NCBI GenBank assembly: GCA_964016885.1
Contig: CAXHJY010000694.1
Coordinates: 62,001 to 126,000, forward strand
Source: Eledone cirrhosa
Lineage: Eukaryota
Reading direction: 5' to 3'
DNA length: 64,000 nt
The translations under genes and the position numbers were made by a program. This document shows, one piece after another, positions 40,467 to 50,763 of this stretch. Positions within the stretch are counted from its first letter, which is position 1. Each line of letters begins with the position of its first letter. The notes beneath the pieces were generated by a model. It worked only from the letters and a program-made list of their open reading frames with translations, ran no database searches and was not told the DNA's origin.

Positions 40467-40613
40467 ATAACGAAGGAAATGTGGTAAGGAACCAGGTGGA
40501 CCATAACGCACCAAAGTACTCAATACTTAGGGTAGTAGACTGGGTAATAGGAACAAGTAAGACCCCGACGGCTGAGCTCAAGAATTAGCCGTCGGGGTCT
40601 TACTTGTTCCTAT
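40467..40613. mobile_element. Family A fold-back fragment
   Basis: Tail 40467-40546 plus hairpin 40547-40613, flanked by (TA)n. Confidence 0.8.
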
Positions 40614-40751
40614 ATATATATATATATATATATAAAGCAAAGGGATATTTAATTTGTTGGTAATTCAACAAATATATCGTCTATCCAGATGAAACTTGAA
40701 CCGTTAAGGTCTCATTCCTGCATATGTCAATATTTATAAAACAAACTTTGT

Positions 40752-40812
40752 ACTTTATCTGATGAGTGCGTACCAAAGTTTTGTTACCCTTGAAATATAT
40801 ATATAATAGAAT
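40752..40812 (+). ncRNA. Degenerate type I hammerhead ribozyme motif
   Basis: actttat CTGATGA g...cccttGAAA TATATATA TA atagaat; same layout as 13740-13803 but stem II is weak. Confidence 0.5.
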
Positions 40813-41023
40813 AAATATGGTTTTATAAATATAGTTTCCATTTATTCATATATATATATATATATATATATATATATATATATATATATATATATATATA
40901 TAGTAAATGACAAGAATAACGTGGTCGGCTGTACAATAGGGTTTATTTAAAGTATTACTTGGATATCTTGTTAACTTATATATATATATATACATATATA
41001 TATATGTGTGTGTGTTATATATA

Positions 41024-41215
41024 CAGGATGTTCCACAAAAATGTATACATATGATTACCTGAACAAGCTATATTTATTTGAATGCTCAGATTTTCCAAAA
41101 ATAAAATATCTAGATATAATTCAATTGTAAGTAAAAGCCCGAAAATGTTTACATAATTTAAATAAGGCATTCTTTTAAAGATTTTGTTGTGTCTACATTT
41201 TTTGGGGACACCCTA
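41024..41215. mobile_element. Tc1/mariner-type MITE
   Basis: Imperfect TIRs CAGGATGTTCCACAAAAATGTATACA / TGTCTACATTTTTTGGGGACACCCTA with TA flanks. Confidence 0.7.
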
Positions 41216-41229
41216 TATATATATATATA

Positions 41230-41285
41230 TACTATTTTACCTGTTTCAGCCATCCGGCTGAGGCCATGCTGGGGCACCGCCCTTG
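41230..41285 (-). mobile_element. ~55-bp 3' tip of the CR1 LINE inserted in (TA)n
   Basis: Matches about 5308-5358 (ttttacctgtttcagccatccggctgaggccatgctggggcaccgcccttg). Confidence 0.9.
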
Positions 41286-41951
41286 ATATATATATATATA
41301 TATATATATATATATATATATATATAGAAGTAGTAACACAACAGTTTGTTCTCGGTATGGTGAACTAACTGTTGCCTTACTTCTTTTACCAAACTCGACC
41401 CATGGACTGAGTGCTCTACTACTACGGATATTACCCTCCAGTGTTCTACCTCTATCTCTGTCTCTCTCTCTCCATATATATATATATATATATATATATA
41501 TACACATATATATATTGTGTGTGTGTGCGTCTTTCCGTGTCTGACTTTGTGTTTGTCTGTGTACATCTGAGTTGCTTCACGCCATGAGACAGGGATAAGC
41601 TCCGGCCTAACAAACCTTCTTGGCTTAAGACAGACTTTAGACTTAAGATTCTGTATAAGGTCCACACGTTGTCTTCCCCCCTCTTTTCACAACGCTCTTT
41701 TTTAAATCAAAAACTTAATTGCGACGCAGAAATAAGGAATGGAATTATTTTCGTATAGCGTTGAGTGTTGGTTGGAATCGCCCAAATAAATCGAAATCGA
41801 ATTCGAATTCTTCGTAGAGACTGTTGGCCAATTAATCCCAACTTTAAAGGTATTTTACTCGATATTTTCAGCTATTATTTTTAGCAATCGAGTGGTGTAG
41901 TTACAGTTATACGCTGAGGTTGAGATTTCTACATTTCTAAACAAATATGTA

Positions 41952-42171
41952 TAGGGTGTTTCCAAAGATTAGATAAAATTTGAGCTGTAAATATCCCAGA
42001 AACTACCACTCTATATTGTGAACTAGTATTATAATGTTGACAAATTTTGAGGAATAAAACTTATGTTGCTTATCATTAAACCTGGTCACTTTTGTCGTCC
42101 TAGACTTTCTAGGATATTTACATTTGGGATTTTCACATCTCAAATGATATCTAATTTTTTTAAACACCCTA
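41952..42171. mobile_element. Tc1/mariner-type MITE
   Basis: TIRs TAGGGTGTTTCCAAAGATTAGATA / TATCTAATTTTTTTAAACACCCTA with TA flanks. Confidence 0.75.
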
Positions 42172-48167: not shown

Positions 48168-48665
48168 AGGATAAGTTATCGTTTTAGGTAATCCAGTTAG
48201 AGGTGGTGAGTACTCTGTACTATGGACAGTTTAAACGTACGGCGTTGTTTGACTCAACAAGAGGTTTCCTTAGTTAGGTGGCGAGTTTGCGAGAATACTC
48301 ATGTAAGTTATTCTTGGAGTAATAATAGTGAAAGCCTGAAGAGTAACATGGTCGGCTGTACAAAAAGGGTTTTATTTACAGTATTAACAATTGTTTCATT
48401 GATCAGGTGAGTCTAAAGGCCACTGATCACTCGAAATTGCGTCACTCGACCTTAAATACAGTGTGTGTCTCTGATCAAATCATCGAAATACTGGAGGGTG
48501 TAACACTTGATTTGATCAGAGACACGCACTGTATTTAAGGTCGAGTGACGCAATCTCGAGTGATCAGTGGCCTTTAGACTCACCTGATTAATGAAACAAT
48601 TGTTAATACTGCAAATAAAACGCTTCTTGTACAGCCGACCACGTTATTCTTAACTCTTTCACTAT
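48168..48665. mobile_element. Family C fold-back element
   Basis: Arms 48325-48482 and 48508-48665, 25-nt loop, ~155-nt tail on the left only, (TA)n both sides; related fragment at about 40900-40975. Confidence 0.8.
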
Positions 48666-49061
48666 ATATATATATATATTTATATTTATATTTATTACAC
48701 CTTAACACCTGTCTTATGTTAACACATCAAATGATTATCATGCAATTAGTTTGTCTTTGAAATGCACGCACCAGGATCATATAATAAACAGTATGTATAC
48801 ATAAAACTGTCTCTTTTCTTTATAATATTAACACGCCGTCTGATACATTATAGATAATAACGCTAAGGGACACTCACGTAGAATGCTTACGTCTGTTTAC
48901 ACTACACTCAGTCAATTAATTGATCAACCAGCGTTTCTTTACTTGAATAATGAAATATACACATATATATCAGATAGATTATATAATCAATAAAATGTAT
49001 TAATGTATTGAACCTTGGTGATTATTATTTATATATATATATATATATAGAGAGAGAGAGA

Positions 49062-49236
49062 GTTAGTATATTTACCAACATATGCGTACAGATGTACACT
49101 AATGCTAGCAAATACATAAGTTATGTCATAGTACCTAGGTGGTTCTATGCAGGGGGATGCAGAACAATTATATGAAAGACGTAAAATAAGAAAATTTTAA
49201 TTTTTAAAATTTTCTTATTTTACGTCTTTCATATAT
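49062..49236. repeat. Perfect ~32-bp-arm hairpin with one-sided tail
   Basis: tatatgaaagacgtaaaataagaaaattttaa TTT ttaaaattttcttattttacgtctttcatata at 49169-49235. Confidence 0.85.
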
Positions 49237-49477
49237 ATATATATATATATATATATATATATATATATATATATATATATATATATATATATATATGCGG
49301 TTCTGATACCGGAGAGACCATAAATAAGGGTAGTACTTAATGTATGGTAAGAAGCCTAATGGGTATAAAGTAAGGTTGATTAACCGTATGGCAATGTAAC
49401 CTTAAAATACCAATACAACTACTAGTAATAACACATACACATACACACACACACCACACACCACACACACACACACA

Positions 49478-49697
49478 GTCCTGGGTATGACATTAAACTG
49501 CATCCAATAGCCAGGCTCCAGTACGGTAGAGAATGTGGAGCTACCCCCTAGTTGTTATAACTCCCAGGTCTGCTCTGACCCGGAGTAGTAGTACCTGTTA
49601 GGGCCCCATTTATAGGTTAAATAACTAGTTTACTCGAGTGGCGCCGGTAAGGGATTATCAGCCATAGAAAAGAACATCTCGGGAATTTTACCCGCCC
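49478..49697 (+). mobile_element. Short non-autonomous retroposon with an RTE-derived 3' end
   Basis: Body 'ctgggtatgacattaaactgcatc...ctcccaggtctgctctgacccggagtagtagtacctgttaggg' resembles a common octopus repeat (from memory); last 21 nt identical to 50281-50301. Confidence 0.65.
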
Positions 49698-49738
49698 TAT
49701 ATAATTTATATCTAATATATATATATAAATATCCATAT

Positions 49739-50328
49739 ATATCCAACTCTCAGACCCGTACAGCAGCACAGACTCCACTACAGCAATGAAGAGGCGGATT
49801 TTCAGGTCTTTACGAAGGTCCGACTTCCACACCGATCTCAAGCTGTGGCACGCCGCCCAGGCCTTGCTCTTCCTCTCAAACACATCATCTTCCGTATTCC
49901 CAATCTTTGCTCCCAAATACAGGAAGTCCTCAACCAATTCCAGCGGCTTCCCGCCTACATTAGTGATCCCCTCTGGCTTCTCAACATTCTCTACCAGATA
50001 TTTTGTTTTAGTCTCATTCATTCTCAGCCCCACACTCATCGACACAGTCTCAACCTCCCGCATCAAATCCTCTGCCTCCTTCACTGTATTTGTCACCAAA
50101 ACTATGTCGTCGGCAAATTCAGCATCCGATACCTTTTTCGCCCTAACTCTCCTGCTCTGAGCCGGTGCTACAGTAAAGCCAGTATGTTGATGCCCTAAGG
50201 ACAGACACTGGTCTGTTGGAGACGCAGAACATGGCAGCGATAATGAGGGACAGAGACCGCTGGAGAGAACTCGTCCATGGATCTCGGGAATTTTACCCGC
50301 CTTAGATAGATAGATAGATATCCAACTC
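49739..50328. mobile_element. RTE-clade LINE insertion with 5' inversion
   Basis: Minus 50185-49743: EFADDIVL...GLRMNETKTK...FLYLG...LLYGSESW; plus 50180-50305: YVDALRTDTG...DRDRWRELV...* followed by (AGAT)n; TSD ATATCCAACTC. Confidence 0.88.
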
Positions 50329-50565
50329 ATAATATTACAAAGATTAAGTCAAATTGTTTAGAACTACAAGTGAAGTCATTCTTTTCCTTTTTTTTTTTAA
50401 ATATATATATATATACTTAGGTTAATAGGAGTTAGGTATTGTATACCCGTGTCCCATTAAGGTATTGGCAGCATAATAATTAGCTCTATGCTTTGGAGCA
50501 GAGTCGTATATATGATAAAGAACACAAGAGCGTCTACAACATCAAAAGATTTTTTTTATATATAT

Positions 50566-50763
50566 ATAACAAAGGAATTGTGGTAAGGAACCAGATGTAC
50601 CATAACGCACCACAGTACTCAATACTTAGGGTAGTAGAGTGGGAAATAGGAAAAAGTATGACCCCGACGGCAGAGCTCAAGCCGTTTCGACGGCTATTTC
50701 TGGACTCACAAATAGCCGTCGAAACGGCTTGAGCTCTGCCGTCGGGGTCATACATTTTCCTAT
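50566..50763. mobile_element. Family A fold-back fragment
   Basis: Tail 50566-50645 plus hairpin 50646-50763. Confidence 0.85.

Follow-up and report, generated by a model that had tools for sequence, protein, structure and literature searches.

Family A copies and their parent element

We analysed a 64,000-nucleotide (nt) stretch of Eledone cirrhosa DNA (contig CAXHJY010000694.1, positions 62,001 to 126,000, forward strand; hereafter the window) from an animal genome of ~3.0 Gb. The window is rich in (TA)n, with 35,055 of its 64,000 bases masked, and it carries five copies of a short repeat, family A, all of which sit in (TA)n; four are inverted head-to-head and one is not inverted. On its sequence features, family A is the terminal repeat and 5′ untranslated region (UTR) of a Hydra-type Penelope-like element (PLE). 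Its copies are element fragments that probably end at the capped start of the element RNA, the two inverted arms of a copy probably being complementary DNAs (cDNAs) primed at two sites of one RNA. A first-pass annotation had recognized the five copies, which are real (26968-27069, 40466-40614, 44625-44822, 44854-44993 and 50565-50764), although the interval that it singled out holds only four of them, the copy at 26968, whose arms do not overlap at all, lying outside. It had also described a hammerhead ribozyme of which the 3′ half was present and the CTGANGA half missing; we found the 3′ half, which is of type I, in 5/5 copies and the 5′ half in 0/5.

Element positions are numbered from +1, the A of TTAGTCCAG. 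On this scale hammerhead loop II occupies -26..+6, the stem II 3′ strand +7..+18, GAAA +19..+22 and stem III +22..+40; the cut is predicted after +41, and two fixed 3′ ends, site 1 and site 2, lie at +61 and +140. The window copies are as follows.

26968..26991, minus strand: copy 1 (26968-27069), long-end arm; last ~24 nt of the tail only, element +117 to +140
27005..27069, plus strand: copy 1, short-end arm; -3 to +61, with no sequence in common with its partner arm
40466..40582, minus strand: copy 2 (40466-40614), long arm; +26 to +140
40583..40614, plus strand: copy 2, short arm, beginning with AATTAGCC at 40583; starts at +8 and ends at +61, stem III being deleted between AGCCGTCG direct repeats (sequence read directly)
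44625..44760, minus strand: copy 3 (44625-44822), long arm; +7 to +140
44761..44822, plus strand: copy 3, short arm; +1 to +61, its 5′ reach exceeding that of the long arm by 6 nt
44854..44993, plus strand: copy 4, non-inverted; +1 to +140, beginning at the putative transcription start
44860..44899, plus strand: type I hammerhead 3′ half of copy 4 (stem II 3′ strand, GAAA, stem III, stem I 3′ strand); stem III loop palindromic, cut predicted after +41
50565..50706, minus strand: copy 5 (50565-50764), long arm; +1 to +140
50707..50709, no strand: copy 5, junction insert; 50707 reads as an additional sense-strand G immediately 5′ of +1, a presumed cap copy
50710..50764, plus strand: copy 5, short arm; +8 to +61

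An Rfam scan of the window gave only simple-repeat microRNA noise among the best 150 of 887 rows, with no hammerhead there.

Genome-wide, a 23-nt tail motif of family A has 33,537 exact matches, and the reversed control has 0. Long copies run into an open reading frame (ORF) with reverse transcriptase (RT) and GIY-YIG parts, and head-to-tail arrays with a unit of ~3.54 kb contain an intact frame of 717 amino acids; the order in tandem copies is 3′UTR, hammerhead, site 1, 80-nt tail, site 2, 95 nt of UTR and ATG. YRDD and a GIY-YIG-like core were identified in the ORF by eye, and searches of Pfam and PDB with the ORF returned no match. The motif SDKTG carries DKT rather than DKG, RLRWRTFF carries RWR, a conservative change from RWK, the linker CNCPDRSIC fits CxCX5C, and CNLC..E..N..CKH fits CxxC/CxH around E and N; CCHH is absent, and the GIY-YIG core has one Cys.

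Family A shares with the Hydra clade of Craig et al. 2021 (PMC8557442) the single ORF with RT followed by a C-terminal GIY-YIG, the motifs DKT, RW(R/K), CxCX5C linker, CxxC and CxH, the (TA)n targets and the terminal-repeat hammerhead, as well as the partial tandems that form a pseudo-long terminal repeat, the inverted 5′ copy and an optional tail at one end. It differs in its unit (~3.54 kb, against generally <3 kb in the clade), its tail (~80 nt, against a typical 30-40) and its hammerhead core, which is U3-A8 or C3-A8 and not canonical. The placement was made from motifs and target as described in PMC8557442; Neptune, our initial guess, was dropped in favour of Hydra after comparison with the published clade motifs.

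Young head-to-tail arrays, the largest with four or more 3.53-3.55 kb units, occur at L351-L355 (C1:91.48 Mb, C1:437.2 Mb, C2:11.1 Mb), with intact ORFs and a U3-A8 core; in one case the array terminates at +61 and the inverted 5′ arm at +140. Such arrays are consistent with a circular or multimeric RNA being copied in a rolling fashion.

Breakpoints and the probable RNA 5′ end

For the breakpoint count, 100 arms bearing the tail were picked by position only within the initial ~21 Mb of contig C1, and 96 were kept. The loci dropped were L086 (a spurious extension, which would add a stop), L247 (rearranged, which would add a pass), L124 (a tandem of tail pieces) and L077 (the second arm of L076); four ends were set by eye. 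Inverted copies made up 75/96 of the sample. Among long arms reaching +7, 57/66 stop in the 11-nt interval -4..+7 (0.137 per nt), a rate about 15-30 times that in the helices (0.004-0.009 per nt; 0-0.010 for downstream helices and loops overall), and 51/53 partner arms at risk stop there as well. Of the 8 long arms at risk, none terminates in the core or the 5′ strands, and matches to +2..+23 number 35,316 genome-wide against 4,686 to the hammerhead 5′ half, in searches whose patterns differ. Clustering is therefore real, but it lies in the last 6-10 nt of loop II, which is 30-32 nt long, and not in the helices. The first-pass annotation had anticipated non-uniform breakpoints, as found, but expected them to be enriched in stems II and III, which the rates contradict; the apices do lie in the stem II loop that it named, though not at the tip of stem II. 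The copy at 40466, which it took to fold back inside stem III, does have a long arm ending there, at +26; the short arm, however, begins at +8 and lacks stem III.

In the junction ATATAT-N-AGTCCAG, N was G in 58, T in 27, A in 9 and C in 6 of the first 100 of 314 matches. At control sites, G occupied the same position in 1/100 at +12 and 1/100 at +63; the background G frequency is 5.5%, and G is native at -1 in 1/67 long copies. A control at +14 was set aside because the native base there is G (12 matches, against 314 at +1), and an earlier count in pure TA flanks (G 22, C 11), which was confounded by a native C, was replaced by two phase-specific counts. An extra G of this kind may be a copied cap, as L1 elements and RTs running off an RNA end would leave. 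Our literature search found no paper that backs this reading of the extra G. The peak falls at T(T/C)AGT, and TTAGT at +1 is Initiator-like; 29-31 nt upstream of it, 67/67 long copies have the start of a TATT(T/C)A box. PLE start sites have been placed in the terminal repeat (PMC2377424, PMC8557442, PMC3846280).

We also collected 70 loci in which the tail runs into the UTR (60 distinct, ten identical duplicates being left out). Copies colinear with the ORF behave differently there from the arms: among those that reach +7, 0/32 stop at the peak (p 5e-18). RNA structure is therefore an unlikely cause of the peak, since a structural stall should hit every pass. At 19/70 loci, a UTR or ORF-start piece directly abuts a further copy whose start lies near +1 (15) or at +40..+42 (4), as expected of template jumps after run-off. 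The peak at -4..+7 is thus likely to mark the capped 5′ end of the element RNA.

Several points weigh against this assignment. In the other TA phase N is G in only 6/100, and T-microhomology at the control sites inflates the T class, so that the non-T contrast is 58/73 against 2/9 (p 0.001). The peak is spread across -4..+7 instead of falling on a single base, the breakpoint sample comes from the first part of one contig, and for 40/70 of the tail-UTR loci the sequence covered only ~350 nt downstream. Start site and cap are read from DNA alone, and the 0/32 result requires a second RNA pool, or efficient jumping, to be assumed. A splice acceptor at TTTAG was considered and rejected, as the sequence upstream of the breakpoints is heterogeneous and contains no shared exon.

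Origin of the mirror arms

The two arms of one insertion differ at 22/510 polymorphic sites, which equals background drift (171/4,389), whereas the figure between insertions is 52%. The arms thus carry one haplotype, as the first-pass annotation had proposed, although the variant that it called private to the copy at 40466 belongs to a common subfamily haplotype. The outer end of the partner arm lies at +58..+63 in 69/75 inverted copies, and 16/27 non-inverted copies use that end too. In a set selected at +2..+23, and not for the tail, 70/72 pairs consist of one long and one short arm. Counting differences of >2 nt, the short arm reaches further 5′ in 29/72 pairs, the long arm in 23/72 and neither in 20/72; in 5/72 the long arm starts at or beyond +61. 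The window copies at 26968, 40466 and 44625 likewise have a short arm that reaches further or arms that do not overlap. An arm copied from its partner could not exceed the 5′ reach of its template or gain a tail, yet the short arm often reaches further, which argues for two cDNAs. Both outer ends are priming junctions, and the arms need not copy each other, as in twin priming; these observations favour twin priming on one RNA over self-priming, with a single RNA molecule the favoured source of both arms.

L1 twin priming is a comparable process, in which two cDNAs from both target strands copy one RNA and are joined head-to-head by microhomology; the second L1 primer is opportunistic and the inversions are non-duplicated. 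In family A, both sites are fixed and the cDNAs mostly overlap, giving palindromes. We propose that transcription would start at +1, so that the RNA 5′ end would carry only the 3′ half of the ribozyme; the start site would itself explain why the core is missing from the copies, and no stall is needed. An RT, probably a dimer, would prime at the 5′UTR sites +61 and +140 on opposite strands of the (TA)n target and run off the cap 60-140 nt later, often copying the cap as C. The +140 cDNA would displace the +61 cDNA or stop at it, and microhomology or short inserts would join the cDNA 3′ ends head-to-head. RNAs without an end at +1 (read-through or circular), or template jumps, would yield the long and tandem copies, and a minority of templates probably begin at the ribozyme cut (+42).

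Such a scheme fits the in vitro behaviour of the anole PLE protein, which nicks and extends both strands, is predicted to be dimeric and starts reverse transcription at two internal sites (PMC11167929). More generally, family A resembles the Penelope/Poseidon systems compared here, PAc of Anolis (PMC11167929), Penelope of D. virilis (PMC2377424) and the Adineta vaga elements (PMC3846280), in having two internal RT start sites that bound the tail, a terminal repeat that holds promoter and start site (both putative in family A), and a head-to-head inverted repeat of which one arm carries the tail. It differs in that the available parts of those papers neither map apices to a capped start nor pair the RT sites across strands.

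The same arms might be made by a cDNA that runs off the RNA 5′ end, snaps back and copies itself to +61, with later rearrangement at the palindrome centre (deletion, spacer flipping) scrambling the arms. Self-priming of this kind has already been proposed for inverted PLE junctions, on an antisense template in Adineta vaga (PMC3846280), and it would account for the single haplotype of the arms, for the 42/72 pairs in which both end within -4..+8 and for the microhomology at 31/72 junctions. However, the second arm would then end, exactly, at a site that is also used as a primary 3′ end; the non-overlapping arms (5/72, and window copy 26968) offer no homology for flipping; and spacer polarity is about even, with 15 short-arm, 14 long-arm and 1 short/short among 30 examined by eye at a frequent junction (2,044 matches). 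We consider this route unlikely. Slightly less likely still is that two sister RNAs of one source locus, held together by a protein dimer or by the palindromic stem III loop, supplied one arm each. PLE hammerheads with a palindromic loop III have been proposed to dimerise (PMC4209133), and co-expressed sisters would also yield concordant arms; haplotype concordance fits both sources alike. Sister RNAs should, however, often give long/long and short/short pairs, yet 70/72 are long/short, and the long arms that stop at +59..+68 (7/96) fit collision with a +61-primed cDNA on the same RNA. Spread of one master palindrome was rejected as the main source, the junctions being diverse and the commonest of them occurring in both polarities and on several haplotypes.

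Twin priming on one RNA may be taken a step further, into a reading that we put forward as tentative and would not bet on. Double priming would be programmed, one RT dimer using both tail-bounding sites of a single RNA, one per strand; tens of thousands of palindromes in the genome would be fossil maps of RNA 5′ ends, recording a cap at a promoter within ribozyme loop II and in vivo cutting at +42 by a split hammerhead whose halves possibly lie at opposite ends of the mRNA.

The hammerhead, the +42 ends and related families

The hammerhead 5′ half missing from the window does occur in longer copies (4,686 genome matches), as the first-pass annotation had predicted, but not in the form 'atgacccc CTGANGA gacggctatttc' that it gave. 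In a hand tally of the first 100 of these matches the core was TTGANAA in 73/100 and CTGANAA in 27/100, and G8, and with it the canonical CUGANGA (C3-G8) core, was found in 0/100. The 3-8 pair is thus kept as U3-A8 in 73/100, with N7 free, and is a C3-A8 mismatch in 27/100. A three-way junction is the minimum-energy fold of a natural intact copy (L353); of three other copies, L083 gave it in the centroid only, and L168 and L170 gave none. U3-A8 is a described PLE core variant (PMC4209133), and family A resembles the minimal hammerhead of the Schistosoma Cercyon PLE in that same paper in its U3-A8 covariation, type I layout and palindromic loop III. Differences are a stem III of 5-6 bp, a loop II of 30-32 nt that holds the putative start site, and the C3-A8 state of about a quarter of the cores.

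A second, smaller cluster of 5′ ends coincides with the predicted scissile bond. By hand tally, 29/58 distinct TA-flanked ends in +38..+45 fall at +42 (p 5e-12), or 22/51 after ambiguous ends are dropped, against a mean of about 3 per position for +28..+36 in the same two contigs. We lean slightly towards ribozyme cutting as the source of this peak, and it is likely that a minority of templates begin at the cut. Two haplotypes speak against it: one that is mostly C3-A8 still peaks at +42 (8/18), and the CATACTTT haplotype has no +42 peak (2/10). A stall at the foot of stem III is a possible explanation of +42. Since about a quarter of the 5′ halves carry the C3-A8 mismatch and the subfamily is nevertheless abundant, cutting in cis may be dispensable for spread.

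The mechanism put forward in the first-pass annotation, in which hammerhead helices halt the RT and stem II or III lets the cDNA prime itself, is very improbable: although the +42 peak (eight positions counted) lies at the base of stem III and is retained in the C3-A8 haplotype, and although there are 194 exact stem III apex junctions (19/30 examined by eye with compatible polarity, 11/30 with the loop on the arm that snap-back forbids), these junctions make up roughly 1% of the inverted copies, estimated at 26,000 or more, the stem II junction expected from snap-back has 0 matches genome-wide, helices break at the background rate, no ORF-colinear copy stops at the main peak, junctions carry an extra G, and apices of other hammerhead families lie upstream of the core. 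The helix idea is thus largely refuted for the main peak and could hold at +42. In families D, E and others, most apices, as judged by eye, precede the core by some 20-140 nt.

Published work already describes inverted 5′ copies, a tail carried by one arm, (TA)n targeting and terminal-repeat hammerheads (PMC8557442, PMC3846280, PMC4209133), as well as the self-priming proposal for PLEs (PMC3846280); the available parts of a retrozyme preprint (10.64898/2026.07.22.740005) and of PMC13282606 add nothing further on apices. In the open literature, with supplements and subscription papers outside the scope, we found no mapping of apices to a capped start and no twin priming in PLEs, nor, in the open literature without supplements, obligate pairing of two RT sites or a cut-site footprint for these elements. 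Family A belongs to a known class with a known architecture; the insertion mechanism proposed here we did not find in print. How PLE inverted and tandem insertions form has been named an open problem (PMC8557442), and in the available text of PMC11167929 hammerhead cutting of PLE RNA was not seen in vivo, RNA-seq of PAc giving no ends at the ribozyme cut. With its more than 33,000 copies, family A lets both questions be approached by counting; the counts point to a start site, a cap, two paired priming sites and a possible cut-site footprint, and the model can be tested with a defined 140-nt RNA and the ORF, intact examples of which occur in the genome. A further implication is that many short (TA)n palindromes in such genomes may be retrotransposon products and not miniature inverted-repeat transposable elements of DNA-transposon origin.

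Other fold-back repeats accompany family A. Family C (window 40180-40340, 63776-63894) has a compact CTGATGA...GAAA hammerhead, whose apices mostly precede the core by 0-9 nt and in many cases follow GATTC (about a dozen copies, by eye); in two copies the apex is just inside the core. Members with a D-type hammerhead (window 40635-40810, 13758-13858) read TTTTAT-CTGATGA and lie in (TA)n; elsewhere their apices are mostly 60-80 nt upstream of the core. At 48328-48662, a near-perfect palindrome of 335 nt, with CTGAAGA at 48336 and related to 40912-40957, is probably another PLE family. Within family A, short direct repeats recurrently flank internal deletions that affect loop II or stem III (L164, L067, L132, L139 and window 40583-40597), and at L017-L019 and L227 short inverted copies have been further amplified as local tandem arrays with (TA)n spacers. 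Long inverted repeats, 99% identical, lie at 5314-8832 and 59006-61733 (1,261 and 737 nt) and are either young inverted insertions or assembly artefacts.

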